Numbered from the stretch's first letter, positions 26,939-47,256 are shown. The stretch is 64,000 nucleotides of DNA from an uncultured Verrucomicrobiae bacterium (GCA_963803825.1 CAWDOJ010000011.1:211170-275169); one strand, 5' to 3'. Notes: generated by a model from the sequence alone, not told the origin. A program made the numbers and translations.

Positions 26939-27349
26939 CTACCGACCGAGCTCTACCAACTGGGAGAACTCTGCGGCAACCAGCGGCATCACGCTCAACC
27001 GGGACTGTCGGACCAACGCGATGTCCTGGAGCGACTCCTCCGCCTTCACCGTAGCCAGCGACACTTCCCTCTTCAACCGAGTCGTGGGCACGAGGTCCAC
27101 GCACACCCATTCGCCTTCCGAAGCGGTCGGATCTGGGTAAGCGCCCCGGGCCACCTCGGCGATCCCAATGACCGCGCGCACCTTGCCGCTGTGATAGAAC
27201 AGCACCGCGTCGCCGACGCTCATCGCGCGCAAATTGATCCGGGCTTGAAAGTTCCGCACGCCCGTCCAAGCCGTCCGCCCATCCTTCTCAAAATCATCCC
27301 AAGAGTAGTCGTCCGGCTCCTGCTTCACTAACCAATGCTTTTTTGCCAT
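26939..27349 (-). CDS. EVE (PUA-like) domain protein
   Basis: MAKKHWLVKQEPDDYSWDDFEKDGRTAWTGVRNFQARINLRAMSVGDAVLFYHSG...RLSVMPL, the canonical EVE pattern. Confidence 0.8.
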   Translation of the reverse strand: MAKKHWLVKQEPDDYSWDDFEKDGRTAWTGVRNFQARINLRAMSVGDAVLFYHSGKVRAVIGIAEVARGAYPDPTASEGEWVCVDLVPTTRLKREVSLATVKAEESLQDIALVRQSRLSVMPLVAAEFSQLVELGR

Positions 27350-27373
27350 AAATCCTGCCCCGCCGCTTCGGCG

Positions 27374-27796
27374 CTAATCCACAAATCTCTTCACTGCCGT
27401 CACGACGTTCCGTCCATTGACCCGCTCGTACCGCAGTTCCGACATTGATTTTCTGACGAGGAAGATACCCAGCCCCCCGATCTCGCGATCTTCTGCGGCC
27501 GCGTCCACGTCCGGCTCCGCCTCTGCCAACGGGTCGAACTCGCGGCCTTCATCGCTCACTACGAGAGTCATCGCTTCCCCATCCACCCTCGACGTCACCT
27601 CGATCTCGTGCTCCGCGTCGTCGTCGTACCCGTATTTCAAAGTGTTGGTCACCAGCTCCTCGAGGGCAAGTTCCGCTGCAAAGACCACGCTCGTGGGCAC
27701 CGCGTTTGCCCTTAAGAACTCCGACACCTTTCGACTGAGCGGCACAAACTCTTCAAACGAATTCTTCTGCGTCAGCCGGATCTCTTTCGCCTTCAA
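27374..27796 (-). CDS. RsbW/SpoIIAB-like anti-sigma serine kinase (HATPase_c_2 type)
   Basis: 140 aa. N-box-like ALEELVTNTLKYG and G-box IGGLGIFLVRK. The TTG start overlaps the upstream stop (TTGA). Confidence 0.7.
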   Translation of the reverse strand: MKAKEIRLTQKNSFEEFVPLSRKVSEFLRANAVPTSVVFAAELALEELVTNTLKYGYDDDAEHEIEVTSRVDGEAMTLVVSDEGREFDPLAEAEPDVDAAAEDREIGGLGIFLVRKSMSELRYERVNGRNVVTAVKRFVD

Positions 27797-29214
27797 AATT
27801 CGACCCTCAAAATCGAGAAATCATCCTGCAGCGGCTTCCCCGCCCGCAACTCGTGCACCCAAGCCAGCAGCGCTTCCAACCCGTCCGCGTCCGAGCCTTT
27901 CTTCAACATGAGGTCCTCGAAGTCTTCAAAATCGATCATCGTCCCATCTTCCCGGGTCACCTCGTAAGTCCCGTCGCAAAGCACGACAAGCCGATCTCCG
28001 TCCCGAAGCTCGATCTCCGCATCGGCAAACGTCATGTCCTCCATCGCACCGATCATCATCCCCTGCGTGCGGATCCGCTCGACGCCGCCGTCGCGCAATA
28101 AAAGCGCCGGTGGGTGCCCTCCGCTCGCGTAGCGCAACCGCCGCGTCGGGGCGTGCACGACGCCATACCAGATCGTGAAATACATGTTATTCTGATTCTC
28201 CATCAGAAACGCGTTGTTCAATGCCCCGAGCACCTCGCCAGGATTTCGAAAATCCGTCCGAGCCAGCGAACCCGACCGGATCACGTTGATCGCGGTGACC
28301 GACAACAAAGCCGCCCCCACCCCGTGTCCACACACGTCGAGAAGATAGATCGCGAAATGCTCGTCGTCGATCCAGTGGTAACCAAACGCGTCCCCGCCCA
28401 GCTCTCCGCACGGTTCGTAGCTCCAGTCGATCCGGTAGGGTTCCGCCATCGGTGCCGGGATGATCGACCGCACGTAGTTTGCCGCCTCTTGCAATTCCTC
28501 CGAGAGCCGAGCCTGCGTCCGCTCGATCGTTCGCAGATATTCGCGCTCCTGATCGCGAAAACGCTTCTTCTCCAGGCTAGCTCCGAGCCGCGCCCGTAGC
28601 AGCGTCGGATTGAACGGCTTCGGAAGGTAATCCTCCGCACCCGCCTCGATGCACCGCACCACACTCCCGATCTCGTCCAACGCCGAGATCATGATGACGG
28701 GAATGTGCCGCAGATTATCGTCCGCTTTCATCCGCAGAAGCGCGGTGCTGCCGTCCACGTTCGGCATCATCACATCCAGCAGGACGAGGTCGAATTCCTG
28801 GTCTCTCAGGACGGCTAGCGCCCGCTCGCCGTCCACGGCCTCCACGACAGAATACCCCTCCCGCGCCAATCGCCGCGAGAGCACCTCTCGGTTCTCGGCG
28901 TCGTCGTCCACCACCAGCAGATGGCCTTCGCCCCGCCCAGGTGAGATGGGGTTCACGGGGGCTGCGGTTGTCGGGTCCGCCTCCCCGACGGTCGCGGTCG
29001 GGGCTTGGCTCGCACCCCCCTCCCGCAGATTCACGTCGATCAACTCCAGCAGTCGCCGCGCCGCCGCCCGCACCTTGGCCAGGTCGGAGACGAGGTCTTG
29101 CCGTCCGAGATCGGCCAGCTCTTCGGCGACCATCTCGCCGTAGCCCACGATGTGGTTGATCGGCGTCCTGAGTTCGTGCCGCAACGTTGCTAGACTATCC
29201 TCGTCGCCACTCAT
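27793..29214 (-). CDS. HisKA-like / receiver / PP2C (SpoIIE) serine phosphatase fusion
   Basis: LRHELRTPINHIVGYGEMV (H-box, with no ATPase lobe after it); REC HLLVVDDDAENREV...LVLLDVMMPNVDG...PVIMISA...KP; PP2C-type GELGGDAFGY...YLLDVCGHGVGAALL...GGHP. Confidence 0.8.
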   Translation of the reverse strand: MSGDEDSLATLRHELRTPINHIVGYGEMVAEELADLGRQDLVSDLAKVRAAARRLLELIDVNLREGGASQAPTATVGEADPTTAAPVNPISPGRGEGHLLVVDDDAENREVLSRRLAREGYSVVEAVDGERALAVLRDQEFDLVLLDVMMPNVDGSTALLRMKADDNLRHIPVIMISALDEIGSVVRCIEAGAEDYLPKPFNPTLLRARLGASLEKKRFRDQEREYLRTIERTQARLSEELQEAANYVRSIIPAPMAEPYRIDWSYEPCGELGGDAFGYHWIDDEHFAIYLLDVCGHGVGAALLSVTAINVIRSGSLARTDFRNPGEVLGALNNAFLMENQNNMYFTIWYGVVHAPTRRLRYASGGHPPALLLRDGGVERIRTQGMMIGAMEDMTFADAEIELRDGDRLVVLCDGTYEVTREDGTMIDFEDFEDLMLKKGSDADGLEALLAWVHELRAGKPLQDDFSILRVEF

Positions 29215-29591
29215 CTCTGATCGGCCACTCGAGCCAACTGCGCCGCGATCTTCTCGAGCAATCGGGGCAATTCGATCGGCTTCGTGTCGTAGTCGTCGCA
29301 GCCCGCTTCCAAAGTCTTCTCCCGGTCCCCCGCCATGGCGTGCGCCGTGAGCGCGATGATCGGGATGCCTCGCGTCGCTTCGTCACCCTTCAACCGCCGC
29401 GTTGCTTCCCAACCATCGATCACCGGCAGACTCATGTCCATGAGCACGAGTTCTGGGCGCTCCGACTTCGCCAGATCGACGCCCTGCTGACCGTCGACCG
29501 CGATGATGACGTCGTGATCCCGACGGGCCAGCCGCCGACTCAACATGTCGCGGTTCATTTCATTGTCTTCAACGAGAAGGATCTTGGCCAT
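29211..29591 (-). CDS. single-domain CheY-like response regulator
   Basis: [15 protein letters not shown]...[15 protein letters not shown]...IIALTAHAM...YDTKP. ATGA overlap with the downstream gene. Confidence 0.85.
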
Positions 29592-32319
29592 GGGATGCGG
29601 TCGGGTCGGATGTCTGGGCGAGGAGTTGGCACACGTCCTGGAGAAGTTGGTCGCGATCCATCCCGCTTTTCTGAATCACCGATTGGACGCCTCCATTCAA
29701 ATTTTCGCGGTCGGCGGGCGACAAGTTCTTCGCCGTCACCACCACGACCGGGATCCGTTTTAGCTCCGGGTCGCGTCGAAGGCACGCCAGAAACTCGAAG
29801 CCATTCATCACCGGCATCATCAGATCCAGCAACACGACCCCCGGGCGTTCCCGTCGGGCGACGTCCAGTCCTTCGGCGCCGTTCGCCGCTTCGAAGACGC
29901 GCAGGCCCGCTTTCTCGAGCAATCGTCTGAGCATCTCCCGATTTGCCGCGTCGTCCTCGACGACCAGCGCCGCGTCGACACCTCCATCCAGATACCTCGC
30001 GATGACCGCCCGCAACCGGGCCGCGTCGACGGGCTTGGTGAGATAGTCCGTCGCACCAAGCGAAAAACCCAATTGCTGATCCCGCAACATCGTCGCCATC
30101 AGCACCGGGATGTCCGCCGTCGTTCGATCCGACCGCAGAGCCGACAGCACCGACCAACCGTCCATTCCGGGCATCATCACGTCGAGCGTGATCGCGTCGG
30201 GTCGGCACGACTTCGCTAGCTCGAGACCTTGCTCGCCACCCGCCGCCACGAGCACCCGGTAGCCACTCTTCTCGAGGGTCCGCCGGTAGAGTTCCCGCGC
30301 ATCCGAGTCGTCATCGACGACCAACACCGTCCGACCTGTCGCCACGACTTCGACCACCTCGGCCTCGAGCTCGTCCACCGTCGACTCCCGTTGAACGACC
30401 TCCACCGGCAGATCCACCGTAAAGGTCGAGCCAACTCCAGCCTCGCTTTCTACCGTGATGTCGCCCCCCATCATCCGGCAAAACTCCCGGCTGATCACCA
30501 GGCCCAGACCCGTTCCTCCGTATTTGCGCGTGGTCGATTCGTCGGCTTGGGAGAAAGAGCGAAACAATTTACCGACCTGCTCCGGAGTCATGCCGATCCC
30601 GGTGTCGGTCACCCGCAGGCGGACCCGCCCGTCCACCCGGTCCGCTCGGAGAACGATCGCTCCGTGATCCGTGAACTTCGAGGCGTTGCTGAGCAGGTTG
30701 AAAAGCGTCTGCCGCACCTTCGTCAGGTCAGCCCGCATGCATCCCAGGCCATCTGCGAGTTCTAGTTCGAGGGCGTTTCCGTTCTTCGCGAGCAGCGTCT
30801 GCACCGTCGCCACCACCTCGTTCAACGTCTCCGCGACGTCAAATTCTTCCACGTACAACGTCATCTTCCCGGCCTCGATCTTCGACAGGTCCAGCACGTC
30901 GTTGATCAGCTCCAGCAGGTGTTTGCCCGCACCCTGGATCTTCCGCAAGTCCGGTCCAAAATCGTCTTGCCCGAGCTCCTCGCTCTCCTCGATCAACATC
31001 TCACTGTAACCGATGATTGCGTTCATCGGTGTCCGCAACTCGTGACTCATGTTGGCCAGAAACGCGCTCTTCGTTCGGTTCGCTTCCTCGGCTTGATCAC
31101 GGGCGTCGGCGAGTTCTGCCGTCCGCTGGCGCACCCGTTCCTCCATCGTCTCGACCATGTCTCGAAGTTGCGAAGTCATCCGATTGAAGTCCCGACCGAG
31201 TTGTCCGATCTCATTCTGCGTCACGATGTCGACCGACCGATCCAATTGGCCCCGCGAGACCGCCGACACGGCCCGCGTCAACGCCTCGATCGGCTCGGAA
31301 AAGGATCGCGCCACGAACCAAGCCGCCAGCGCGGCAAGTATCACGGCGATGATCGCCACCGCCGCCGCCAATCGCGCGAGCGAGGCCACGGGCGCAAACG
31401 CCTCGTCCGCGTCGATCTTGACCACGACCCCCCACTGCAGCGCGGGTAGGTATTGCCACACCGCCAGCACGCGCTCTCCCCGGTAGTCCGTCACGATCCC
31501 CGAGCCCCGTTGACCAGAGGCACTCTCGACGATCGCGGCGCCCGCCGGATCGCCGATCATCACCCGCCTCTCGAAGGCTGCGTCAGGATCGTGCCGCGTC
31601 GGCGCGACCAGCAGAGCCGCGTCCCCTTCCAGCGTAGCGACGACCATCTCCCCCGTCTCGCCGAGGCCGACCGTGTCATTCACCACGTCGTTGACCTCGT
31701 CCAGATCCAGGCGCACCGCGAGCACTCCCAGAAAGATCCCGTCGGAAAGAACTGGCGTCGCAAAGAAAGTGGCCGCGCGGTCGTCCGGCTCGAATACCGC
31801 GAGGTCCGATTGCACCGTGCCCAGCGTCATCAGACTGGTGGCCACCGCCCGCCCCAGCCCGGTCTCAGCGAGCGGAGGGCGCAGCACGTTGCCCGTCACG
31901 TCGTCGTTGCCGTCGGCTTTGACCACGATCTCCCCCGCAGGATCGATCAGATAAACTTGCTCCAGATTCATCGCCACGCGGAATCGCTCCAACAATCGGC
32001 CATGACGCGCGACCGCGATCCGGTAGCTGAAGTTCGCCCCTCCACCCGTCGCCTCCACCGCCGCCGCAAACAGGCGCAACGCGTCCGCCGGCGTCCCGCT
32101 GTCGGCCAGAGCCGTGAGACTCTGTTCCTTCGACTGCAGGAACTCTTCGATCTGCCCGCCCTGCCGCATACCGATGGCAGCCAGATTCGTCTTGATCACG
32201 TCGCTCAACAGCTGGCGCGAAGCCGAGTAATTCAACCAAGTCCCGAATCCCAGCGGCACCAGCGCTAAGAGCAAGAACCAGACGATCAGTTCGGTCGAGA
32301 TCCGTCGCTGCGGCTTCAT
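29569..32319 (-). CDS. Cache-HAMP hybrid sensor histidine kinase with two receiver domains
   Basis: A TM segment, a ~300-aa periplasmic Cache-like domain ([31 protein letters not shown]), a second [17 protein letters not shown], HATPase ([15 protein letters not shown]), then two RECs ([13 protein letters not shown]...; [13 protein letters not shown]...). Confidence 0.85.
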
Positions 32320-33569
32320 GGATGACCGCCCTCCGGGTTAGTCCAATCACCTCCCCAATCTTGTCGCAAGTCCTCGAGAGTCCGCTCCCAATCGCGTCGA
32401 GTCCGAAAGATGGGGAACGGCATCGGCCGCACTGGCTTGTCCGATGCCCAGACCAAGTCAAATTGCCCGTCCGCGCGCACCCGTCCGATCCGCACCGATT
32501 TCCAGGTGTGCTGCGTGTCTGCGTCCACGTAGACGAGTCCTTCCGGCGAGTGAAAACCCTGCCCACCGATCACCCGCCGCACCGCGCCGGGATCGGGCGA
32601 TTTTGCCGCCCGCACCGCCCCCGCCCACAGGTTGACCGCCGCGTAGGCCGCCACCATGGGATCCGAAGTCACCGCGTCCGCCCCAAACCGCTCCTTGTAG
32701 GCCGAGATAAAATCTCGATTGAGCTCCGCATCCAAACTTTGGAAATAATTCCACGCCGCGTAGTCGCCCGTCATCGCCTCAGCGTCCATCTGGGCGAGTT
32801 CCGTCTCGGCGATGCTAAACGACATCGTCGGGATTTTGTCGGGCGTCACCCCCGCCGCCCGGAGCGCCGCAAAAAACGCCACGTTGGAGTCGCCATTGAT
32901 CGAGTTGAGAATCACGTCGGGCTCGGCTTCCACAATCGCTTCGACGAGGGGAGCCACGCTCGTCCCGCCCAGCGGCAGATATCGCTCACCGACCACCCGC
33001 CCGCCGAGGGCTTTGACCTGATCCCTGATCACCGCATTCGCCATCCGCGGAAAGACGTAATCGGATCCAACCAGAAACACTCGCGGACCAAACTCCCGGA
33101 GGGCGTAACTGACCGCCGGGACCACCTGCTGATTCGGCGTCGCCCCGGTGTAGACGACATTCGGCGATTGCTCGATCCCTTCGTATTGCAGCGGGTAAAA
33201 AAGGAGCCCATCCGCCGCTTCGACCACCGGGACCACCGCCTTCCGACTCGCCGACGTCCAGCATCCGAAGATTACACTCACTCCCTCTTTCTCGATCAGA
33301 CGCGTAGCCTCCGCAGCGAAGATGCGCGGATCCGATGCGCCGTCGACGACCACGGGCTTGATCTGGCGGCCCAACAATCCACCGCGCGCGTTGATTTCCT
33401 CGATCGCAAGCAGCGTCGCGTTCTCGACGGCCTGCTCGCTCATCGCCATCGTGCCGGACTGCGAATGCAGAACCCCAACGCGAATCGGCTCCACCGACAT
33501 CGGCGAACAACCCGTCCCGAGCCAGAGCAGTCCCGCCGAGCCGACGAGCCGAGCGAACAACGACTTCAC
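32316..33569 (-). CDS. lipoprotein, type I periplasmic binding fold (UrtA/AmiC/Liv-like SBP)
   Basis: The GTG at 33569 gives a signal with lipobox [24 protein letters not shown]...[16 protein letters not shown]...[12 protein letters not shown]...YPLQYEG resembles urea/amide-binding UrtA/AmiC proteins. ATGA overlap with the kinase. Confidence 0.75.
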
Positions 33570-33577
33570 CTAGCGGA

Positions 33578-34675
33578 CTAAGCGCGCACGACGGGGAGCC
33601 GGGCGACAAACTGCATCTCGCCGCTGTTCCCCAGTTGGCAGTCGACCGTCCCCTTGGCGTATTCGGCGATCTTGCGGCACGTCGCCAGCTCAAGTCCCAA
33701 TCCATTCTGCCCCGTGGCACCAGCCGCAGGCTGTTTCGCGCCGAACAGCGCGTTGATTCGGTCCGCATTCCCACCATCGCGACCGTCGTTCACCCGGTCG
33801 ACGACCAACCGCAGCTCTTCCTCTTGCTCGACTTCGTCAATCTGCACGCTGAATCGCACGGAAATCGACCCCCGAGTCGCCATCCTGATCAACTTTCGAG
33901 CCACCATGAGAATGGATCGCTCGGGGCCCAGGTACCGCTGGCCGGTCGGACAGAAATCGTGGAATTCGAGCGTGATCGCTCGTTCGCGAGTCTGCTCGAT
34001 CAATGGCAGGAACACCACCTCGGGGAGAAATGCGCTCTGCACGCCAGCTTCCGCCAGGTGGGAGGCACTCACGTAGTCCACGATCTCCATGAGGATGTCG
34101 TGCAGCTGCCGACCAGAAGTCTGGATTTCTTTGATCCAACCCGCCCGCTCCGCGTCCAGTGGCTCGTGGGCGAGCAAGTCGGAGAACCCGAGCACGATGT
34201 TCAGCGGTGTGTTAAACTCATGGCAGAGGAGGGAAAAAAATGTGTCGTGCACACTCATCAAGCGCGCCTGCATCTCTTGCGTCCGCAGGCTTTCCTGATC
34301 GTAGTCGGCAAACCCGCGCGAGATGACCGCCTTGAGGTGGCTTCGCTCAAAGGGCTTCAGGAGGTAATTAAAAGCACCATAATTCACCGCCGCGATGGCG
34401 CTCTCCGTGCTCTCGTGCGCCGTGAGGATGATGACCTTCTGAAGCTCACGGAGTTGCTTCAAGCGCTTGAGTGTCTCGATACCCGTGAGGCCTTCCATGC
34501 AGAGATCGAGCAAGACCACCGGATAGGATTCTTCCGCTACGGCGAGGAGAGCCTCTTCACCCGACGCGACCGTCCGGACATCGTACTCGTCTCGCAAGCA
34601 CAGGCTGAGAGTCTGCCGAACCAACGGCTCGTCGTCGACGACGAGGACCTTGCGGAGTGGAGGGCCGGCAGTCAT
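33578..34675 (-). CDS. receiver-histidine kinase fusion (REC-HisKA-HATPase)
   Basis: The ATG at 34675 gives MTAGPPLRKVLVVDDEPLV...VVLLDLCMEGLTG...ILTAH...LLKP. Then H-box LLCHEFNTPLNIV and an ATPase lobe (GLGLELATCRKIAEYAKGT). Confidence 0.8.
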   Translation of the reverse strand: MTAGPPLRKVLVVDDEPLVRQTLSLCLRDEYDVRTVASGEEALLAVAEESYPVVLLDLCMEGLTGIETLKRLKQLRELQKVIILTAHESTESAIAAVNYGAFNYLLKPFERSHLKAVISRGFADYDQESLRTQEMQARLMSVHDTFFSLLCHEFNTPLNIVLGFSDLLAHEPLDAERAGWIKEIQTSGRQLHDILMEIVDYVSASHLAEAGVQSAFLPEVVFLPLIEQTRERAITLEFHDFCPTGQRYLGPERSILMVARKLIRMATRGSISVRFSVQIDEVEQEEELRLVVDRVNDGRDGGNADRINALFGAKQPAAGATGQNGLGLELATCRKIAEYAKGTVDCQLGNSGEMQFVARLPVVRA

Positions 34676-35882: not shown

Positions 35883-36970
35883 ACGGTTTTTGTGGGAGCA
35901 AGACCCGCGAGGTCCGCCCGGCTGAATTGCTCGCGCAGCGCCTCGATCACCTCATCTGCCGCGACGTCATCGCCGCCGAGGTCAAATTCAAATTTCTCCA
36001 TCTTACCGGAGATCACCAAGCGCCCGCGCACTAGGGCCAGAGCGAACAGCGATCTCAACAGATGCACCGCCGTGGCGCTAGATTCCTTCTCCGCCAAAAC
36101 CCCGCCGAGAGAGCGAGCCAGGACCGCCCGCTCGACGGTCGCTTCCTTGAGCGACACTTCCGCAATCGCGCCGTTGGTCTCGGAACGAATCGAGTTCTTT
36201 TCTAGCCCGAGACTCTCCGCCATCGCGGCAGCCAGATCGCTCACGGCACCCGCAACCCGATCTTCCCCCGAGCCGCCCGCCGTCCGCACGGACTCGATGG
36301 CGTCGAGACAGGTGATCGCATTCGCGTACTCACCGGCAACGAGGCGGTGGATGTCGAAGTCGGCCGCGCTGGTCCCCGCAGCCGTCTTTGATCCCGCTGG
36401 ATTCAATTGGCTCGGGAGCACCTCGATCATCGCCGTCACGGCTCGCCGTAGACCGGCTTGTTCATCGGTCGCCCAACCGCGCGAGGCCAGCAGCAGCCAC
36501 TTCACGCGGTCGCTACAAAGCACCCGCTGCAGCGTGCTCATCTTCACGCCGAGCAGCTCGTCACGCTCCGTCAACACGTGATGATAGTCCGCCGCACGCT
36601 GCAGCACCATGCCGAGGTCCGGGACCTCCCAGGGCTTCACGACGTATTGATAAATGTGGCCCCGGTTGACGGCCTGGATCGCGCTCTCGAGATCGGAATA
36701 CGCCGTGGTGAGAATCCGGACGACGTGCGCGTATTCGTTCCGCACGATCTCGAGCAACTCAGCACCGAGCATTTCCGGCATGCGCTGATCCGAGATGACG
36801 ATGGCGATCTTGTCGGGATCGCGACGCAGTATCTCCAGACCCTCCTGGCCGGAGGTCGCGGTGAAAATCTCGAACTTCGTCGAGAAGGCGAGGCGAAAAT
36901 ATTTCAACGCCTTTTCTTCGTCGTCGATGTAGAGGATGCCGGTTTTGCGGCTGGATGGATTTGTTAGCAT
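35879..36970 (-). CDS. receiver domain protein with uncharacterised ~230-aa C-terminal domain (PhcQ-like architecture)
   Basis: The ATG at 36970 gives MLTNPSSRKTGILYIDDEEKALKYF...VISDQRMPEMLGAELL...RILTTAYSDL...VVKPW. I recognise no motif in the C-terminal half. Confidence 0.7.
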   Translation of the reverse strand: MLTNPSSRKTGILYIDDEEKALKYFRLAFSTKFEIFTATSGQEGLEILRRDPDKIAIVISDQRMPEMLGAELLEIVRNEYAHVVRILTTAYSDLESAIQAVNRGHIYQYVVKPWEVPDLGMVLQRAADYHHVLTERDELLGVKMSTLQRVLCSDRVKWLLLASRGWATDEQAGLRRAVTAMIEVLPSQLNPAGSKTAAGTSAADFDIHRLVAGEYANAITCLDAIESVRTAGGSGEDRVAGAVSDLAAAMAESLGLEKNSIRSETNGAIAEVSLKEATVERAVLARSLGGVLAEKESSATAVHLLRSLFALALVRGRLVISGKMEKFEFDLGGDDVAADEVIEALREQFSRADLAGLAPTKTV

Positions 36971-39582
36971 GAGATTAAGGCCGACTCGGCCAGCGGGAGT
37001 TCGATGGTGAAAAGTGCCCCGCCTTCGGGCGGATTTTCCGCTCGGATCACCCCTCGGTGCGAATGGATAATTGTATGGCAGATACTTAGTCCCATTCCCA
37101 TTCCAGAACCGACGTCCCGGGTCGTGAAAAATGGATCGAAGATTCGGCTGATGATGTCTTTCGGTATACCGGGGCCGCTGTCTCGCACCCGCAGGACCGC
37201 CTGATCGCCGACCGTATCTCCGGAGATCCAAACGACGCGTTCGCCCGGCAGATTGGCTTCGCTCATCGCGCGATTCGCGTTATTGAGCAGATTAATGAAG
37301 ACGTGCATGAGCTGCGTCTTCTGGCCGCGCAGCTGCAAGCCGTCGGGGAGATCGATATCGATCCGCACACCCTCCATTTCGCCGGCGACGATCTTCATTG
37401 CGTTGCGGAGCAATTCCGCCACCGCTACGTCCGACTCCGTCCCGGCCTTCTCGGGGAAAGCAAACGTCTTGAGATCGGTCACCACGTCGCGGATGCGAGT
37501 CATCCCTTCCTCAACGTCGTCAAAAATATCCTGCATTCCTTCGGACAGCGTGTCTCGCGACATCTTTGCGACGCTCATCGCCGTGAGGGTGTAGTTGAGA
37601 GGGTTGTTGATTTCGTGCAGCAACCCAGCCGACATCGAGCCGATTGCGTTCATTTTTTCGCTCTGAATGAGCATCGTCTCCGTATCACGCAGCTTGCCGA
37701 AAGTCGCCGTGAGTTCATCGTTTTTCGTCCGGAGATCGCGTTGCATCTGCCCGGCGCGAAGGAGATTCCGCACCCGGGTCCGCACCTCGATGCTGCTGAA
37801 AGGCTTGGTGAGAAAATCGTCCGCTCCAGCTTGCAGCGCGTCGATCTTCGACTCTTCGTCCGCCCGCGCCGTGAGTAGCACGATCTTCAGATCGCGATTC
37901 GCGTCGTGGGCCCGCAGCGTCTGGCAGAGCTCCAGTCCGTCCTTGCCCGGCATCATCCAATCCAGCACGACGAGATCGGGGCGGTGCTTCGCGACGAGTT
38001 CCTCGACGTTCCCGCCGTGCTGCGTCTGGACAACGCGGTAGTCCTCCGCCAACAGCGACACGACGTAGCGCCGCATGTCGTGCTCGTCGTCGGCGACTAA
38101 CACGACCTGGGAACCCGATCCAACCTCGGGCAGCTCCACGTCCGCCGAGTCGTCGTAGGTCCAACTCCGATCCGCCGACCGAAACGCCTTCTCAAAAGGC
38201 TCCTCGAGATCGTCCAATGCGACGCGATCCATCGGCTCGGACTCGACCGCTGCCGCCCCCGTGGCCGGCAGAGTGACCCGAAATGCGCTCCCCTCGCCGA
38301 CCACGCTCTCGACGCCTAACGTGCCGCCGTGCTGCTCGACCAATTCCTGCGCGAGCGCCAAGCCGATGCCAACCCCTTGATTCTGATTCGCAGCGTTACT
38401 TTTGACTTGGTGGAATCGGTCAAACACGCGCGCAAGGTCCTCCGGCGGAATACCGACGCCGGTGTCCGCTACTTCGAACCAAAAACCGCCCGCCTCAACG
38501 GCACCTGATCGCACGGCGATCGAGCCGCCTGCGGGGGTGTACTTCATCGCGTTCGTCAGCAGGTTGAGTAGCACTTTTTCGATCCGCGCTGGGTCGAAGT
38601 CGGCCCGCAGGTCGCCCGGCCCACTCTCGATTTTGATCCTCAGCCGCTTCGATAACCCCAGGTGGCGCACGGATTCAATGATCCCGCTCAGAAACTCGTC
38701 GACGTCTACCGTCTTTCGGCGCAAGACGTCCACGCCTTGATCCATCCGCGTGAGATCGAGAAGATCGTTGATCAACTTCAGCAACCGCAGCGTATTGCGC
38801 TGAACCACGATCATCGTCCCGTGGATCGCCGGATCGAGTTGATCCGCCCGACGCAACAAATCTGCTACCGGACTCAGAATGAGAGTCAGCGGCGTCCGCA
38901 ACTCGTGGCTGACGTTGGAAAAAAACTGCGTTTTGAGGCGGTCGAGATCGCGCAGCTCCCGGTTGCGTTCGTCGAGCTGATGCCGCAGGCGGAATTCTTC
39001 GAACCTCGTTTTCGAGAGATACCACGTCATGCCGATGCAGACCGCCGTTGTTATCACCAGAAAGAACCCGCCAAATCCCAAGGCTTCGTAGCCCCCGGCG
39101 TCGGCGAAATCCGGATTCAACACGCACGCTACAACGTACGCTGCGAGCGAGACCACGCACATGATGATCGTTTCGAGAACGGTCCACGGCGAGACGATCG
39201 CCCAGCAAGTCAAGATCAAGGTGAGGCCCGCGTGGTAGGGTGAGGTCGCCCCGTCCGTGCGGAAGATCATGAACGTCATCGCGAAGTTGATCGTCAACGC
39301 CGACAGCACACCGAGAGCTTTCACGCCAGCCAACGATCCCCTCCGCCGGGCTAGCAAAAGCAGTGCGCTCAAAACGACGAGCACAAGATCGGCCCCAAAC
39401 CGGAGGGCCAAAAATTCGCCGAAGTGATCGGGATACAGGAAGTAATCGAGCACGAACCCTCCGGGCAGGGCTACCATTGCCACCCCGTTCATCACGAGAA
39501 GGCTCCGTGACAATCGACCGACGCTCTCGCGGCGGTAGGCGCCCCGAAGCTCGGCATTCGATTTTTCGACTTTGGTCGTCAT
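36964..39582 (-). CDS. membrane sensor kinase with HK-REC-HK architecture (N-terminal half PhcS-like)
   Basis: The ATG at 39582 gives MTTKVEKS. About 6 hydrophobic helices; SHELRTPLTLI plus HATPase (DTGVGI, GVGIGLALA); REC (VVLVADDEHDMR...VVLDWMMPGKDG...LLTA...KP); second H-box LLHEINNPLNY plus a second HATPase (DSGPGI, GMGMGLSI). Confidence 0.8.
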   Translation of the reverse strand: MTTKVEKSNAELRGAYRRESVGRLSRSLLVMNGVAMVALPGGFVLDYFLYPDHFGEFLALRFGADLVLVVLSALLLLARRRGSLAGVKALGVLSALTINFAMTFMIFRTDGATSPYHAGLTLILTCWAIVSPWTVLETIIMCVVSLAAYVVACVLNPDFADAGGYEALGFGGFFLVITTAVCIGMTWYLSKTRFEEFRLRHQLDERNRELRDLDRLKTQFFSNVSHELRTPLTLILSPVADLLRRADQLDPAIHGTMIVVQRNTLRLLKLINDLLDLTRMDQGVDVLRRKTVDVDEFLSGIIESVRHLGLSKRLRIKIESGPGDLRADFDPARIEKVLLNLLTNAMKYTPAGGSIAVRSGAVEAGGFWFEVADTGVGIPPEDLARVFDRFHQVKSNAANQNQGVGIGLALAQELVEQHGGTLGVESVVGEGSAFRVTLPATGAAAVESEPMDRVALDDLEEPFEKAFRSADRSWTYDDSADVELPEVGSGSQVVLVADDEHDMRRYVVSLLAEDYRVVQTQHGGNVEELVAKHRPDLVVLDWMMPGKDGLELCQTLRAHDANRDLKIVLLTARADEESKIDALQAGADDFLTKPFSSIEVRTRVRNLLRAGQMQRDLRTKNDELTATFGKLRDTETMLIQSEKMNAIGSMSAGLLHEINNPLNYTLTAMSVAKMSRDTLSEGMQDIFDDVEEGMTRIRDVVTDLKTFAFPEKAGTESDVAVAELLRNAMKIVAGEMEGVRIDIDLPDGLQLRGQKTQLMHVFINLLNNANRAMSEANLPGERVVWISGDTVGDQAVLRVRDSGPGIPKDIISRIFDPFFTTRDVGSGMGMGLSICHTIIHSHRGVIRAENPPEGGALFTIELPLAESALISC

Positions 39583-40977
39583 CCCTCTTTTCGAACCGTC
39601 AGAAATACGTTCACCCCGGTCTCGTCGGGAAAGACCTCGGAGTCTGCTCCCTTCGGCGCGAGGGAGAGGAGGTGGTTTTCGTCCCGGTAGACCAGAAACC
39701 ATTCGAGCAGATGCTCCATCAGGTAGCGTTCGGGGTTGTTCGGATGCACGTTTGTCGCGACGAGTAACCCACCGGGCCGCACCCAATTGTGATAGAGCTG
39801 GAGCAGATTGCGGCAAACGTTGTCCGGGAAATAATCGAACAAGCCCGCGCAATAAATCATGTCGTAGCTCGGCAGAAATCCTTCCTCCTCGAAGTGAATA
39901 TTCTTGAGCAGATCATCGACCGATTTCTGGATGAATTTGATCGTTGGCTTACGCCCACTTTCGTTCGTTGCCGCCTGCATCCGGCTCGTGACGTAGGCCA
40001 GCGTCTCGTCGTTGAAGTCCATGAGGTGCAGCGCACTTTCGTTGGCGAGATCGTTGTTCCGAATGAACCGCTGGATTTCTACCGCGGGTCCGCACGCGAT
40101 CGTCAGCACGGTGAAGATACGCTGCTCCTCGGTGACGCGCTCGGCCTCTTCGCCGAGCAGGCGCTCGAGGATGGTGATGCGGTTGCGATGCGCCACGCAG
40201 GCCGCCACGCTGGACGTGATGTCGTGAAAGATCCGCGCGTAAGTGTTCGTGCCGGTCGTCGCGGACTCCTGCAGCATCATGTTCACCATCTCGTAGTCAC
40301 CCGCGTAACCCAGCGGCTTGAAAAACGTCCGCCACACGAACGGCGCCGCCAGCATGTACGGGTGCATCTCGCGGCGGGCAAACGCCTTGTAGGCACTCGC
40401 GTCCTCTTCCGGCACGTCGGCAGCAGCCTTTTGAAAGAGATCCAACAGATCGCCGACCTTCCGTGTCAGCGGCGCTTCCAACGACTGGCGAAACGCCGAC
40501 GCGCGATCGGAGTCGATCTTCTGGTCGCCGACGATCGCCGTCTCGGCCTCCTCGATCCAGCGACTCGTCTCCGCGAGGAAGTTCGAGAATTTGTTCACCG
40601 CGAGCTGGTAGCCCTCGGCCAGCTCCAGGCCCTCTTCCCAATCCTGAATGAACTTATCCAGCTCCTCGCCGAGCGCTGCGCCTGGCTCGAGGTGGTCGAG
40701 CGCGTTCCACGCGTCGATCAGCGTGACCGACGCGATCACCATGAGGCCCGTCGCGACCAGACTGGTGACCACTCCGCGGCCTCGATAGATCACCCGTTCA
40801 CCCCGCATCACCGAGAAGCTCTTGGAGCACCTCGCTGAGCTGGATGAGCGAATACGGATTGTAGACCTCGAAGACGGCGATCGTCCGCGAGATGTGGACG
40901 AGGGTCCCTCGTCCGTTGAGTCCAGCCGTGTTCGTAAATGCCACGACGCTGTCGATGCCCGCTAATGCCTTTTCCAC
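39579..40977 (-). CDS. PhcB-like class I SAM-dependent methyltransferase; +1 break near 40813 joins an unlisted 59-codon ORF to the listed ORF
   Basis: Listed ORF 39579..40811 contains KPLGYAGDYEMVNMM, motif I VLTIACGPAVE, LHLMDFNDE, YDMIYCAGLFDYF and VRPGGLLVATN. An unlisted ORF, GTG 40977 to TGA 40798, reads VEKALAGIDSVVAFTNTAGLNGRGTLVHISRTIAVFEVYNPYSLIQLSEVLQELLGDAG. It has GC-rich third positions. Removing one G near 40813 fuses it in frame (...ELLVMRGERVIYRGRGVV...). Confidence 0.6.
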
Positions 40978-40995
40978 AATTCGATTTCCGAGGGT

Positions 40996-43900
40996 TTAGT
41001 TTTTCCAGATTTTTTCGGCGGCCATCGCGGCCATTTGCTGAACGTTTGGTCCCTTGAGGAGTTCCATCGCGGAAAAACTCACGCCGATGCGCTCCTTCAC
41101 TCCAAGTCCAAGCTCGAGAACCATGAGCGAATCCACGCCCATTTCGTTCAGCCTCCGATTCACCGGCACGGAGTCCTTCGCCATTCGCAAGGTCTTGGCG
41201 AGCACCTCTTGGAGGTGGTCCTCCATCACCCGCAACCGCCGCTCCGGGGAAGCTCGCGGAGTGTTCCCGCCGGAGTTCCGACGCTACTCCGCCACCGCCC
41301 GCTTCCCCGGCGCCGCGCATCTCCGCAAACCGCGAATCGCCCGCGATTCTCGGATTCGCCTCGCGCCACCGGTCCCAGTCTACGAGAAACGCGCCGACTT
41401 GCGCCGACCCCAGACCAATCGCTTTCTCCAGAGCCGCGAAAGCTTCCGCGTTCGTTAAGCCCGTGATTCCCGCTGCCACCAAGGCCGCTTCGATCCGCTT
41501 GTCCTGCGCGACGATCCCGGACTCGGCCAGCGCGCCAAGATTCAGAGACGTCGCCGGCACTCCGCGACTTCGCAACCAACGCGCGAGCCCGTCCAACGTC
41601 GCGTTTGCCGCGACGTAGTTCGTCTGACCGGCGTTTCCGATGAGCGCCGACACCGACGAATAGAAAACGAAGAAATCCAAACCCGCGTCTTCGCCCAAAG
41701 CCTCGGCTAGGTTCCAAGCCCCCGCTACTTTCGGCAGAAAGACCCGGCGAAACCGCTCTTCCGTCAGGTCTGCGATCCCCACGTCGTCGAGCACGTTGGC
41801 CCCGTGCACGATCCCGCGAAGCCGGAACGGATCGGTCCGCCCGGCCTCGATCAACCCGCGAGCCGCACCCGGGTCCGTCACGTCCGCTGCCAGCACCTCG
41901 ACCTCCGTCCCTTGCGATCTTGCGAATGCCAAAGTCTCCTCCATCCCGGTTGCCGCGGCACCCGACCGACTTGCAAGGATCACCTTCCCTGCCCCCCGCT
42001 CCGCCAACCACCGAGCGGTCGACAACCCGAATCCCGCCGTCCCTCCGGTCACGATGTAACACCCATCCCGCTGGACGACAGGCTCGCCGCCCAGCGGAGC
42101 GATGACCTCGAGTTCGCCATCGGCAAAATCGATCAGCAATTTTCCGACCTGCTCGCTCCGGGCCATCAGCCCGAACGCGTCCGCGATCTCTTTCGCCGGG
42201 AAAACTCGCGGAGCTGAGAATTCGAAATCTCCCTTCGCAAGGTGTGCAAACACGGCCTCCAGCGTCCGGCGGACGACTTCGGGGCGCTCGAGCGCCAGCT
42301 GGTCCATGTCCACCGCCGCGAAGGTGAGGTTGTGACCGAAAGCCCGCATCGGCAGCCCGTTGTCTTCGGCGATGTCCTTCTTCCCAATCTCGACGTAGCG
42401 CCCCCCGTCCGCAACGTTCCCAGCCCCGCGTGCATTGCCGGCCCGGTCTGCGCGCCGATCACCACGTCCACGCCCTGGCCTCCCGTCGCCTCGCGGATCC
42501 CAGTCGCGAAGTCCAAAGTCCGCGACGAAAACACGTGCCGCACACCCGTCTCGCGCAAGGCCAGCCGTTTCTCTTCCGAACCCGCCGTTGCAAAGATCTC
42601 CGCGCCGATCCACCGGGCGATCGCCATCGCCGCCTGCCCCACGCCCCCCGTCGCGTGGTGAATGAGCACCCGCTCGCCCCGCCGCAGCCGCCCGACTTCC
42701 AGTAGGCCGTAATACGCCGCCCCAAAGACGACCGGCACCGCCGCCGCCGCCATTCCCAGACCATCCGGGATGCGAACCACCGATTCCGCGCCGACCGTAG
42801 CGTAGGTGCGAAAGCTGTCCCGCGTCATCACCACGACCTGGTCGCCCTCGACGAACCCGGTCCCGGGTCCAACGCGCACGACCACGCCCGCGCACTCCAT
42901 CCCGATCGCCGACCCGGTCACCGTGCCCTCCAGCGCCAAGGGATGCAGTCGACCCTCGATCTTGAGCAAGTCTTTGTAATTCAGGCCCGCTCGGTGCACC
43001 CGCACCTCGACCTCGCCGTCGCCGGGGGCGATTCGCTCCGTGCTTTGGAAATGAAGCGAGTCCAGTTTGCCCTTCACCCCCACGACCAACCGCACCGCCG
43101 AGTCGACCGACTCCCACCGCCGCTCCGGTTCGACCGGCTTGTCGGCCAGCGCCGCAATCCGCCGCTCGCAGCGCACACCGTCGCGGTAGACGATCTCGCC
43201 GCTCGATCCCGCAGCGAGTTCGGCGGCGACCCACTCCGCTCCGCCGGATGCGGGCAGGCCGATCGACCGAGCCGTGACGTGGTCGAGTTCGTTCTGAGCG
43301 ACCAGCGCGACTGCGGCGAGACCACTGGTCGCCCAACCGCCCGCGTCCCGCGTCACAAAAGTCACGTCCCGCGGGTTGTCCAGAGCGGTGACCAAGCGGA
43401 CGATTTTCTGATTCAGCGCCAACACTTCCGCCACCGGATCGCCCTTCGACCGTCGCGTCCCCCACAAGACCACGAGCCGACCCCGATCCGTCTCCGCGCA
43501 ACCGAGAATCGCGCCCGGCAAAGTCGCTTGAATCTCGTGGCACAACTCGAAGTCAGAATCCTCTTCGTCCGCGAGGATCGCCACATCGCTGCCGTCGATG
43601 GAGCGCTGCACAGGCGGCAACTCGATCGGTCGCATCGCGACTTCGTGCAGCCATCTCTTCCCAGCGTCGACCAACTTGGAATCGATCAACTGCAATGCCA
43701 TCCGGTGCGCGTGCGCCAGCACCTGCCCGTCGCCATCGAGCAACCAAACGTTTGCCGTCAGCCGCGATTCCGATCGCTGCGTCAACACCCCGTAGGCGTA
43801 GACCGCAGGAGACTTCGGCCGTGCGTGATACGTGAACCGCTCGATGGAAAATGGCACGAAGAGCCCCGCCTGCCCGGAACGGTAAAGAATCGGCTGGATC

Positions 43901-46900
43901 GCCGCATCGAAGAGCGTCGGGTGCAGCGGGTGCCCGACCTCCCCCACCACCGCCGCCGCGTCCAATTCGAGCAGATACGTCCCGTCGCCCAGCCGCACCT
44001 CCGTCGTCGGTCGAAACGCCGGTCCGTAGTGCAAGCCCCGCCGCTCCAGGTCGTCGTAGAAAACGTCGACCGCCAACGATTCCCCGCAGCCGCCTCGCAG
44101 CTTTGCCAGGTCCAGCCGCTCCTCCGCCAGCTCCGCTTGCGGCGACATTCGCCCGCGACAATGCCGCGACACGCCGTCCTCCCCCTCGGTCCGGCTGGAG
44201 ATCGTGAACCGCCCGGCCTCCGGATCGTGCTCCGTGAGTAGGTATTGCAGCTTCGCCGGATCGACCACCAGCACTCGCTCGAAGCTCACGCTGTCGAGCA
44301 CGACCGACGCCGTTCCGTTCACCTCCGCGCTCAACGTCAGCGCAGCGTCCACGTAGCCCAATCCCGCAAACACCGTCTGGTTTTGCACGCCGTGGTCCAT
44401 CAGAAACGGGAAATAATTTCGATTCACCTCGACCTCCCAGCACGCCGACGGCCCGACGACCGGCGTGCTCAGATACACCGGTCCGTCCCCGGCACCGAGC
44501 CGCTCGATCTCCGAGCGCTCCGACTCCACCCAGTGCCGCTGGCGCTGCCACGGATACTGAGGCCCGGCCACGAGCAGACCCCGCTCCGGGGCGAAGACCC
44601 GCCAATCCAAAGCCTTCCCCGCGCAGTCCAGCTCCGTCGCCGTCTGCTGCAGCCGCTCGATCTCCCCTTCCTTTCGCCGGAGCGACACGAAGCCCGCGAC
44701 GCGCGCATCCCGCGCCGCCGCGCATTCCTTGATGGAATTTCCCAGCACCGGGTGGGGCCCGATTTCCAGAAATTGCGACCAACCCGCCGCAAACATCGCC
44801 GCCATCGCGTCCGCAAATCGCACCGATTGCCGCACGTTTTTCCACCAATATTCCGCCGTCCATTCCCCGCCCTCCGACGCCTCCCCGCTCACCGTGGAAT
44901 AAAGCGGCAGCCGCGCCGCTTTCGGCGCCAGCGACCGTAGCGCGTCCAGGATCTCCTCCCGGATCGGGTCCATCTGCGGGCTGTGATACGCCACTTCGAC
45001 CCGCAGAAATTTCTGAAAAATCTCCGCCGCCTCGAGTTCCGCCGCCACAGCTTCCAGCTCCGGCCGGTCCCCCGACAACGTCACCGCGCTGAAGCTATTC
45101 ACCGCCGCGACCGACACCCCCGCCCGACCCCGCAGATACGGCGCGACGTCCGCCTCCGACAACCCCACCGCTAGCATCGCCCCCCGACCCGCCGTCGTCT
45201 GCTGCAATCGGCTGCGATGGTAGCTCACCAGCACCGCTTCCTCCATCGTGTACACCCCCGCCGCCCACGCCGCCGACACCTCACCCACGCTGTGACCCAC
45301 CACCGCCGTTGGCCGGATCCCCCAGCTCTCCCACAGCCGGACGAGCCCGACCTGCAGCGCGAAATTCGCCGGCTGCGCCACCTCCGTCCGCTCCATCCGC
45401 GACTCCGCCTCCGGAGCCAACATCGCCTCGCGCACCGACCACCCGGCCAGCTTCTCAAAATATCCGTCCACCTCCGCGACCGCTTCGGCGAACACCGGCT
45501 CGTTCTCGATCAGCTCCCGGCCCATCGCCCACCACTGCGGCCCCATCCCGGTGAAGACAAACGCCAGCCCGCCGCTCCCAGCCACCCCCGTCACGACCCC
45601 CTCGTGCGTCTCGCCCGTCGACGCAGCGATGAGGCGCTCCCGCAACTCCTCCGCGCTCCCCGCCCTCACGACGCAGCGCGTCGCCAAATGACCCCGCCGA
45701 AACGCGAGGGTGTGCGCCAGATCGTCCAGCGCTCCCGTTTTTCCCCGTCCCAGCAAAAACGCCCACTTCCCTGTCAGATCTCGCAACCCCGCCTCGTTTG
45801 CCGCCGAGAAGGGGAACATCTGGACCCCCCCGCGTTCTTCCGTAGGCGGTGCGCCCGCACTCGCCAACCCCGGAGCCGACTCCAGCAGCACGTGCGCATT
45901 CGTCCCGCCGTACCCGAAGCCGTTCACCCCCACGAGCAGCGATGCGCGATCCTCGACCCCCGGCAGATCTGTGACCTCGGTCACGATGCGCAGGTTGTAA
46001 TCCTCCCAAGGGATCTTCGGATTCGGCGTCTTGAAATGCAGATTTCTCGGGATCTGCCGGTGCTTGAGCACGCCGATCGCCTTCAGCATTCCCGCCACGC
46101 CCGCCGCCGCCTCGAGGTGGCCGACGTTCGTCTTGACCGATCCGACCAGCAGCGGCTCCGTCCGCCCAACCGAGAAGTTTTCATCCAGCGCCGCCAGCTC
46201 CGCCGGATCCCCTGCCTGCGTCCCCGTCCCATGCGCCTCGACGTAGTCCACCGTCCCCGGCGCGACGCCGGCCCGCTCGTAAACCTCCCGCACCAACCCG
46301 CTCTGCGCCGATCCACTCGGCAGCGACAAGCCCTCCGTGCGCCCGTCGCTGTTCACGCCCGATCCACGGATCACCGCGTGAATCGGATCCCCGTCCGCCT
46401 GCGCCCTCGCGAGAGATTTGATGAGAAACACTCCCGCGCCCTCGCCCCGCGCGTAGCCCGCCGCCGATTCGTCGAAGGCGTGGCACTCCCCGTGGTGCGA
46501 AAGAAAATGCCCCTTACTCATCAGCACCGGGTACTCGGGCCGGGTCATCACGTTCACCCCACCCGCTAGCGCCATGTCCGCCTCACCCGCCCGCAAGCTC
46601 TGGCAGGCGTAGTGTATCGCCACCAAGGACGACGAACACGCCGTGTCCAGCGTGAGACTCGGCCCCCGCAGGTCGAAGGCGTGCGAGAGCCGATTCGACA
46701 GCACCGTCATCATCACTCCGCCCGGCGCGTGCGCGTCCATCAAGTGCTGATTGCTCGGTTGCGCTCGCAGCAGCAAATGATCCAGGCAAAATCCCCCCAC
46801 GAACACCCCGGTTCGCGACCCGGCCATCCGCTCCACCGGCAATCCCGCATCCTCGAACGCCTCCCACGTCGACTCCAGCAACAGGCGCTGCTGCGGATCC

Positions 46901-47256
46901 ATGCTCGCCGCCTCCCGAGGGGTGATCCCGAAGACCAGGGGGTCAAATTGCCGCACGTCCTGATCCAGCCAGGCGCCCTTCGGTGCGTAAGTTTTCCCGG
47001 GACGCGCCGGATCCTCGTCCCAATACCGCCGCCAATCCCAACGGTCTGACTTGATCGGCTTCAACGCGTTTCCGCCCTTGAGGAGGAAACGCCAGAACGC
47101 CGTGAGCGAATTGCCACTCGGCGGCATCCGGCAGCCGATGCCGATGATGGCAAACCGATCAGACACATCATCATCTTCAACCACGCCGAAGGGGTCTATC
47201 AGGAAACTCTTGTTTTCACCAAGCGCCGATCTGAGAAAACAGCGTCCGGGCAGCAA
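40996..47256 (-). CDS. single-module fully reducing type I polyketide/fatty-acid synthase, KS-AT-DH-(psiKR)-ER-KR-ACP; breaks near 42412 and 41245-41275
   Basis: KS: DTACSSSL (Cys codon 46636-46638), EAHGTGT, NVGH. AT: GHSVGE (Ser codon 45289-45291). DH: LMDHGVQNQTVFAG (His codon 44392-44394). ER: LIHHATGGVGQAA. KR, in the frame of ORF 40808..43543: VTGGTAGFGL...YSSVSALIGNAGQTNYVAAN. ACP, ORF 40996..41235: GVDSLM (Ser codon 41128-41130). The ORF ends 27 codons after the ACP helix region, with no TE domain. Confidence 0.85.

Follow-up and report, generated by a model that had tools for sequence, protein, structure and literature searches.

A phc-like gene block headed by a polyketide synthase, a candidate cell-cell signalling operon, in an uncultured Verrucomicrobiae bacterium

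The stretch of DNA analysed here (the window) comprises 64,000 nucleotides from an uncultured Verrucomicrobiae bacterium (GCA_963803825.1 CAWDOJ010000011.1:211170-275169). It carries an array of 12 consecutive minus-strand genes that runs from 47256 down to 26939 (frame-corrected ends; Table 1). The first six genes form a block resembling the Ralstonia quorum-sensing operon phcBSRQ, headed by a gene for a polyketide synthase (PKS) and continuing with genes for a methyltransferase (MT), a membrane histidine kinase (HK1), a PhcQ-like and a PhcR-like protein, and a soluble receiver-histidine kinase (RECHK). Behind the block lie five genes, here called module 2, which begin with a solute-binding protein (SBP) and a Cache-domain hybrid histidine kinase (Cache HK), and finally an EVE-domain gene. 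In gene order, the 11 junctions measure +18, -4, -7, -4, +4, +8, -4, -23, -4, -4 and +24 nt (negative values are overlaps). An initial annotation, made from the window sequence alone, had already described 12 same-strand genes with these junction lengths, all of which were reproduced with frame-corrected gene ends, and Pfam and NCBIfam likewise recovered its eight receiver (REC) domains spread over seven proteins. Five of the six H-boxes that it listed are found as HisKA domains by Pfam, while the sixth, in the 400-aa protein, appears only by profile comparison with PhcR. Its remark that the array has no internal terminator also stands: terminator-like hairpins are at chance level (16 observed vs 15.0 +/- 4.5 in shuffled sequence), and every one lies inside coding sequence. 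A scan for sigma-70-like promoters yielded none, and a search of Rfam gave no match.

Table 1. Genes of the array and the exchanged segment, in window coordinates. KS, ketosynthase; AT, acyltransferase; DH, dehydratase; ER, enoylreductase; KR, ketoreductase; ACP, acyl carrier protein; TE, thioesterase; SAM, S-adenosylmethionine.
Feature	Coordinates	Strand	Evidence
PKS, KS-AT-DH-ER-KR-ACP, no TE, 2,086 aa	40996-47256	-	Pfam, PDB match
PhcB-family class-I SAM methyltransferase (MT)	39579-40977	-	BLASTP vs Ralstonia PhcB
HK1: polytopic membrane sensor-HisKA-HATPase-REC-HisKA-HATPase	36964-39582	-	Pfam, hhalign
PhcQ-family: REC + C-terminal domain without Pfam match, 363 aa	35879-36970	-	BLASTP, profile-profile
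PhcR-family: REC + degenerate histidine-kinase-like domain, 400 aa	34680-35882	-	hhalign; NCBIfam HK-like match, residues 139-377
REC-HisKA-HATPase soluble kinase (RECHK), 365 aa	33578-34675	-	Pfam
Peripla_BP_5 SBP, UrtA-like; first gene of module 2	32316-33569	-	Pfam 9e-158; TIGR03407
dCache-HAMP-HisKA-HATPase-REC-REC hybrid kinase (Cache HK); module 2	29569-32319	-	Pfam
Single-domain REC; module 2	29211-29591	-	Pfam, synteny
HisKA-like-REC-SpoIIE (PP2C) phosphatase, RsbU type; module 2	27793-29214	-	Pfam
RsbW-like serine kinase, HATPase_c_2; module 2	27374-27796	-	Pfam 1.1e-26
EVE-domain gene	26939-27349	-	Pfam 1.8e-42
Exchanged cassette, ~8 kb: PKS + MT + HK1 membrane-sensor domain	38640-46930		Protein tiles, DNA sliding identity

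The MT belongs to a family of ~465 aa with the full-length architecture of PhcB, an N-terminal domain followed by a class-I methyltransferase domain. It shares 42% amino acid identity over 460 aa with PhcB of Ralstonia sp. SET104 (E 3.5e-127, BLASTP), as well as the same Pfam signature and the motifs LGYAGDYE and YCAGLFDY. These motifs were used to scan one genome per species, which returned 593 MT relatives; locus analyses were made on the best 80 (numbered from L001 upwards, the SET104 locus being L045), and denominators below 80 in what follows refer to the loci with enough sequence. As the initial annotation had supposed, the MT groups with PhcB and not with other methyltransferase families, and its closest family members are all from Verrucomicrobiota. 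Many homologues carry the JGI label [quoted passage not shown], which we take to be the KEGG description of PhcB; no NCBIfam model names the MT. An AlphaFold2 model (pLDDT 84.6) combines a beta-barrel with a helical region and a Rossmann methyltransferase domain, and has no hydrolase-like part. A Foldseek search of this model against the PDB retrieved generic class-I methyltransferases only (top match 3ocj, TM 0.42/0.63) and gave no hint that the N-terminal domain acts as a hydrolase or in release.

The genes behind the MT correspond to the remaining members of the Ralstonia operon. At L045 the encoded proteins measure 470 aa (PhcB), 442 aa (PhcS), 368 aa (PhcR) and 335 aa (PhcQ); published sizes are 464-468 aa for PhcB, 368-374 aa for PhcR and 336-337 aa for PhcQ, with which the gene sizes agree (PMC8578825). 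HK1 resembles PhcS at both ends: its membrane domain (residues 31-207) aligns with PhcS residues 26-195 at 28% identity (E 4e-21), and its C-terminal kinase (612-866) with PhcS residues 186-442 at 39% identity (E 1e-56). When the two families are compared with hhalign (E 4.6e-75), the alignment jumps an internal HisKA-HATPase-REC unit of HK1, and HK1 residues 486-863 in turn match the whole PhcR family (E 2.2e-34). The second HisKA domain has the H-box LLHEINNP, whose histidine counts to position 230 in the PhcS of L045; H230 is the phospho-accepting histidine of PhcS (PMC11960443). HK1 thus has the features of a PhcS-type sensor, namely a polytopic membrane domain that lacks any large periplasmic loop, together with the H230-equivalent histidine. 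A Pfam match of HK1 to MASE8 fell below threshold (17.9 vs 26.2 bits), was absent from Ralstonia PhcS at E<=0.01 and is not used as evidence.

The 363-aa protein shares 43% identity over 155 aa with Ralstonia PhcQ (E 1.5e-39, BLASTP) and matches the PhcQ family over its full length in a profile-profile comparison (E 1.8e-54, 322 columns), and the 400-aa protein does the same with the PhcR family (E 1.4e-35, 334 columns, hhalign). Both have the published domain make-up of their counterparts, REC with a kinase-like domain in PhcR and REC with a C-terminal domain in PhcQ (PMC8578825), and no DNA-binding domain is found in the PhcQ-like, PhcR-like or RECHK proteins. Homologues of all four Phc components were therefore found by BLASTP and profile comparison, which bears out the resemblance to phcBSRQ pointed out in the initial annotation, and the block is almost certainly homologous to that operon. 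Upstream of Ralstonia phcB, L045 also contains a 358-aa ORF with weak REC-like similarity (8252-9328, plus strand), which is probably the PhcX/PrhX regulator described previously (PMC10653808, PMC10788593); no counterpart was seen beside the Verrucomicrobiota block.

Pfam gives the PKS the domain set KS-AT-DH-ER-KR-ACP, and the catalytic residues are present. On sequence grounds, it is a type I, iterative, fully reducing enzyme resembling mycocerosic acid synthase (MAS), which is also its closest solved structure (E 3.7e-233, PDB); its best NCBIfam match is Pks2, at 941 bits far below the equivalog cutoff of 2400. The catalytic motifs are invariant in 12-15 orthologous loci (those alignable per region) and comprise the KS Cys/His/His triad, the GHSVGE of the AT, the DH His and Asp, the nucleotide-binding sites of the ER and KR, the KR Tyr and the ACP Ser. 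Another AT motif, VAYHS, is likewise invariant and unlike the YASH that we take to be typical of methylmalonyl-specific ATs. Across nine related loci, no conserved thioesterase, phosphopantetheinyl transferase (PPTase), ligase or exporter gene lies upstream of the PKS, and the upstream genes differ per lineage: HlyD/FtsX, a kinase-like gene, a PAS histidine kinase, an integrase, a LuxR-type response regulator, WYL and ABC-F. As conservation upstream extends to no further gene, the conserved block starts with the PKS, and because the upstream genes vary in every lineage examined, the PKS block may move as an island. At L014, a phage-type integrase gene (2845-3741, plus strand) stands directly upstream of the PKS.

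An MT profile search of 1.84 billion representatives returned 998 clusters (50% identity) at E<=1e-30, and the best 80 relatives in the genome scan include Ralstonia, Cupriavidus and Paraburkholderia, with 42-45% identity over the whole length. A histidine kinase gene follows the MT in 77/77 loci and a PhcQ/R-like gene in 62/64. The PKS is directly upstream of the MT in 16/77 loci (MT identity 49-100%), all from Verrucomicrobiota (Chthoniobacterales, Terrimicrobiaceae, Opitutales and Pelagisphaera), and the MTs of these 16 loci form a single clade in a neighbour-joining tree; loci without the PKS belong to Pedosphaera-type Verrucomicrobiota, Planctomycetota and Proteobacteria. The initial annotation had staked its proposal on the neighbourhood being conserved in some relative, and the PKS-MT neighbourhood is indeed conserved across this Verrucomicrobiota clade. 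RECHK follows the PhcR-like gene in L001-L009 and L017; in Chthoniobacterales, conservation of the block ends with this gene, so the conserved block reads PKS-MT-HK1-PhcQ-like-PhcR-like-RECHK. The conserved linkage, the single clade and the intact motifs make a functional coupling of PKS and MT very likely.

The distribution of the kinase bears on the history of the operon. A long HK1-type kinase is recovered as one high-scoring segment pair in 46/71 loci, while Burkholderiaceae have two genes, PhcS and PhcR. Because the single HK1-type chain occurs elsewhere and the PhcS-PhcR pair in Burkholderiaceae, gene fission or fusion within the phc operon is suggested. Among Planctomycetota and the Gamma-, Delta- and Alphaproteobacteria (L016-L039, L040-L079), it is this long form that was seen after the MT. 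Two loci have unusual arrangements. L038 (Candidatus Anammoximicrobium) has tandem PhcB-like MTs at 8347-9714 and 10001-11365, 31% and 42% identical to the MT of the window. L050 (14074-19446, minus strand), from a Pedosphaera metagenome-assembled genome (MAG), has an MT-histidine kinase pair without an upstream PKS; immediately downstream, the other strand carries PKS-like KS-AT and KR genes.

Within Chthoniobacterales, the window is a mosaic relative to its closest loci. The flanking AI-2E family transporter and hisD share 87-95% protein identity with those of L003 and L004 and are not found in L001. When the proteins of the array were compared in tiles, HK1 residues 249-872, the PhcQ-like and PhcR-like proteins, RECHK, the SBP and the Cache HK were closest to L003/L004, at 51-95% identity (mostly 78-95%) vs 41-84% to L001, which is without the SBP and Cache HK. 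L001 was instead the closest match to the PKS beyond residue ~367, the MT and HK1 residues 1-248 (the membrane sensor), at 59-94% vs 40-82% to L003/L004 (one PKS tile was unmatched). DNA sliding identity places the switch points at ~46.9 kb and ~38.6-39.0 kb, where the PKS begins and the HK1 sensor domain ends, respectively. DNA identity between the window and either relative is only ~70-87% in each segment, so the window is no mere join of these genomes. Pairwise-identity matrices fall into the same two blocks: Pearson correlations over 13 loci, whose pairs are non-independent and dominated by two groups, are 0.87 for MT with the N-terminal part of HK1, 0.83 for MT with PKS, 0.92 for PKS with KR and 0.93 for the C-terminal part of HK1 with the PhcR-like protein, and range from 0.46 to 0.67 across blocks (the conserved KS tile, grouping with block B, was left out). 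It thus appears that lineages have exchanged the PKS, MT and HK1 sensor as a single block of ~8 kb, in the manner of a pherotype swap. Such a pattern would be expected if the HK1 membrane domain had the PKS/MT product as its ligand and signal and receptor were co-inherited. PhcB and PhcS of Ralstonia are reported to cluster according to the type of signal and not the lineage (PMC8578825).

Taken together, the six genes from 47256 to 33578 are probably a Verrucomicrobiota phc cell-cell signalling operon with its own precursor factory, separate from the five genes downstream. [quoted passage not shown] In the proposed mechanism, the PKS would assemble an acyl chain on its own ACP, consistent with its domain set and catalytic residues, and the MT would convert the acid into a methyl ester, as the known activity of PhcB and the conserved 18-nt linkage suggest. 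The lipid-like ester would be sensed within the membrane by the polytopic domain of HK1, which is homologous to that of PhcS, and the joint exchange of sensor and synthase points to the ester as its ligand. HK1 would then hand phosphate to the PhcQ-like, PhcR-like and RECHK proteins. As none of the receivers has a DNA-binding domain, output is presumably through protein-protein contact, as with PhcQ and PhcA. The synthase genes and the sensor domain would pass between lineages as the ~8-kb cassette, as signal/receptor specificity types (pherotypes) would. By analogy with PhcB/PhcS function and in view of the cassette exchange, a diffusible ester that HK1 senses is the better-favoured assignment for the product, and a 3-hydroxy fatty acid methyl ester would be the MT-made signal expected from other phc systems.

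Several observations weigh against the signalling operon. Neither the block nor its flanks contain a gene for a thioesterase, PPTase or exporter. With both the DH and the ER motifs intact, the PKS product need not be a 3-hydroxy ester. A PhcA-like LysR regulator or other DNA-binding output was not found among the window ORFs scanned; phcA lies outside the phcBSRQ operon as described in Ralstonia (PMC8578825). The covariation has the narrow base described above, and L001, L003, L004 and L006 are all bins of one sample, MFD03250. Finally, the PKS and MT are not intact ORFs in the raw sequence, which has three 1-2 nt indels within 1.6 kb, and the PKS/MT locus may be inactive in this genome owing to these indels.

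Some of the same observations would suit a different role, in which the lipid methyl ester from the PKS and MT serves a structural or defensive purpose and HK1 and the receivers only regulate, or give feedback on, its production or the state of the envelope. MAS, which the PKS resembles, makes cell-wall lipids; the block has neither an exporter nor a DNA-binding output; and a sensor exchanged together with its synthase would also fit product feedback. All four genes after the PKS are, however, homologous to a demonstrated quorum-sensing operon, and the MT-histidine kinase-REC cassette of most phyla comes without a PKS, which makes the MT and kinase the core of the system and the PKS a precursor-supplying add-on. 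A structural lipid is consequently considered unlikely, and a signalling operon remains the preferred interpretation of the six-gene block.

In the initial annotation, all 12 genes were regarded as one coupled system with a partner-switching pair as output, and neither part of that view was sustained. Module 2 shows a conservation pattern of its own. Its SBP passes the UrtA model TIGR03407 narrowly (495.6 vs cutoff 492.75 bits), and there are no permease or ATPase genes of a urea ABC transporter (UrtABCDE) beside it; because its neighbours are kinases and not transporter genes, the UrtA-like SBP is, judged by gene context, sensor-associated. Among L001-L010 and L017, the SBP and Cache HK genes stand behind the phc-like block only in L003, L004 and L006, as in the window, and module 2 is not downstream in L001, L002, L005, L007-L010 or L017. 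In another Chthoniobacterales genome (L081/L082), the five-gene cassette is found alone, between a PAS kinase and housekeeping genes and without PKS or MT, and the SBP and Cache HK are conserved together in L081, L082 and L084. HisKA-REC-SpoIIE proteins form a large family in Chthoniobacterales, some members of which are fused to HATPase_c_2, and at L083 a STAS gene follows the RsbW-like gene. In the window, the PP2C and HATPase_c_2 components of a partner-switching system are present, but no STAS antagonist was found in the 64 kb by tblastn with the L083 STAS (E up to 10), a single query that could miss a divergent one. The EVE gene follows the cassette in the close relative L084 and not in the more distant L081-L083, and it is probably a passenger outside both modules.

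It has nevertheless to be considered whether the 12 genes constitute one integrated operon, in which polyketide-ester and SBP/Cache inputs converge via eight receivers on the PP2C/RsbW pair. The shared strand, the 8 nt between the two blocks and the lack of any intergenic terminator above chance are consistent with such an operon, and the arrangement is kept in L003, L004, L006 and L084. These four genomes are, however, close relatives with flanking genes 87-95% identical, and integration is made improbable by the loci in which module 2 is missing behind the block or stands alone, by the missing STAS partner in the window and by the separation of EVE from the cassette in its more distant occurrences. 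As the conservation patterns of module 2 and EVE differ, the 12 genes are better divided into a six-gene block, a five-gene cassette and a passenger. By comparative evidence, the five downstream genes are an independent sensory cassette, juxtaposed 8 nt behind the phc-like block in one sub-lineage. Given the 8-nt gap, module 2 may be co-transcribed with the block here, but its functional coupling to the block is not supported by conservation.

The initial annotation spoke of "frame-corrected translations" and in so doing touched on the frame breaks in PKS and MT, although it never stated that these two genes are frameshifted; the 10 remaining genes of the array are uninterrupted. Near 42385 the PKS goes out of frame, where the window has one G fewer in a G run than five relatives, and it is back in frame near 41280, so that it is read in three frames; it is not one uninterrupted frame in the window, while L002-L010 have the frame whole. 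The MT has a single additional base near 40818 that severs the conserved N-terminal 55 aa, which were recovered in another frame, and the public gene call is a shortened 409-aa ORF. The PKS start at 47256 is the TTG of the longest ORF; GTG at 47184 or 47166 is a more likely start. Elsewhere in the window, the photolyase gene is also frameshifted (9871-11269, minus strand), with a DNA_photolyase ORF at 10844-11269, a FAD_binding_7 ORF at 9871-10860 and the break at ~10.85 kb, as is the HtrA-like protease gene (25789-26920, plus strand) near 26760. Related long-read MAGs have split genes as well, such as the PKS of L001 and the Cache HK of L003. Because the photolyase and HtrA-like genes are frameshifted and related MAGs show split conserved genes, indel errors of assembly are the likeliest cause of the PKS and MT breaks.

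The clustering of all three array indels in 1.6 kb of PKS and MT could alternatively be explained by decay of the synthase part into a pseudogene region, leaving a signal-negative variant that retains its receptor. We regard this as fairly improbable, since the frameshifts elsewhere in the window and the split genes of related MAGs argue against it, as do the position of one indel in a G run, the lack of premature stops and large deletions, and the integrity of every catalytic motif; mixed strains at a hypervariable cassette would also be expected to spoil the consensus sequence. An assembly chimera of co-occurring strains, to which the common sample of L001, L003, L004 and L006 and the location of the three indels inside the mosaic segment might be taken to point, is least likely of all, given the DNA divergence from both relatives in every segment, breakpoints at the PKS start and sensor-domain end, and the same two-block covariation over 13 loci from different studies.

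The array is bounded upstream by the AI-2E family transporter gene (47413-48564, plus strand), divergent from the PKS, and downstream by the convergent HtrA-like protease gene (plus strand; corrected end near 26920). The surroundings on the AI-2E side include the housekeeping genes hisD, HAD hydrolase, PGM, malQ and uvrA, and those on the other side an extracytoplasmic function (ECF) sigma factor, PNP, panE and NDH-2. The divergent transporter was considered as a member of the system and rejected, being common to L003 and L004 only. A second AI-2E family transporter gene, followed directly by a GAF-HisKA-HATPase-REC hybrid kinase gene, was observed at 16463-19328 (plus strand). The ECF sigma factor, a 138-aa ORF without Pfam match and the HtrA-like protease (24555-26920, plus strand) likely form an operon convergent on the array, and the same arrangement occurs in L084. 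GC skew on the plus strand is strongly negative over the whole window (-0.14 to -0.35 in 2-kb windows), which looks large for a bacterial genome, and is weaker across the minus-strand array (-0.01 to -0.19).

The initial annotation knew of no description of a dedicated PKS, a second SBP/Cache input and a partner-switching output within a single array. No paper on the PKS-MT coupling was found, nor any literature linking PhcB with PKS, Verrucomicrobia or Planctomycetes, nor a phc-type quorum-sensing system reported for Verrucomicrobiota, although literature coverage was incomplete and this is weak evidence of novelty; the phc signalling literature that was found concerns only Ralstonia (plant pathogens) and Cupriavidus. 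What looks new here is the swapping of PKS, MT and the HK1 sensor domain as one unit. Verrucomicrobiota are abundant in soil. The 998 MT clusters and the MT-kinase-receiver cassettes in Planctomycetota, several proteobacterial classes and Verrucomicrobiota allow a broader proposal, which is put forward tentatively: PhcB/PhcS lipid-ester signalling could be widespread, with a PKS-made signal in soil Verrucomicrobiota and specificity types arising through swaps of PKS, MT and receptor domain. The PKS-PhcB-PhcS block would thereby be a testable candidate for a polyketide-derived signal in Verrucomicrobiota, and the comparison suggests that the split PhcS/PhcR of Burkholderiaceae would correspond to a single hybrid kinase elsewhere. 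The synthase-plus-sensor exchange, if true, would represent a pherotype-like diversification of a lipid rather than a peptide signal, and the exchanged cassettes would provide natural allele pairs with which to probe signal-receptor specificity.

Several known systems share parts of this organisation. Module 2 is reminiscent of RsbU/RsbW/RsbV in that a REC-PP2C phosphatase adjoins an RsbW-like kinase, and relatives fuse the two or add STAS; it differs in that no STAS and no obvious target were found in the window and in its input, a UrtA-like SBP and a Cache hybrid kinase. Pseudomonas HsbR/HsbA is presumably an example of partner switching with receiver input. The PKS has the same domain set and order as MAS and Pks2, KS-AT-DH-ER-KR-ACP, likewise without a thioesterase, but its partners are a methyltransferase and a kinase cascade, whereas those of MAS are, we assume, an acyltransferase and a transporter. 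The closest parallel is phcBSRQ, with which the block shares one strand, overlapping or short junctions and receiver proteins without DNA-binding domains, and the grouping of Ralstonia PhcB and PhcS by signal type parallels the cassette exchange described here (PMC8578825). A dedicated 2,086-aa PKS precedes the MT in the window, while the Ralstonia operon has no acyl-synthesis gene (PMC8578825). HK1 differs from PhcS by an extra HisKA-HATPase-REC unit, which gives one chain the domain content of PhcS and PhcR; the gene order is B-S-Q-R and not B-S-R-Q; there is an additional REC-histidine kinase gene; and the host belongs to Verrucomicrobiota, with no PhcA-type LysR seen in the window. In pherotype loci such as agrBDC and comQXP, the signal-production genes vary together with the sensing part of the receptor. 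The presumed signal here is a lipid or polyketide ester instead of a peptide, and the comparison draws on few MAGs; as in those loci, kinase core and flanks go with the background of the genome.

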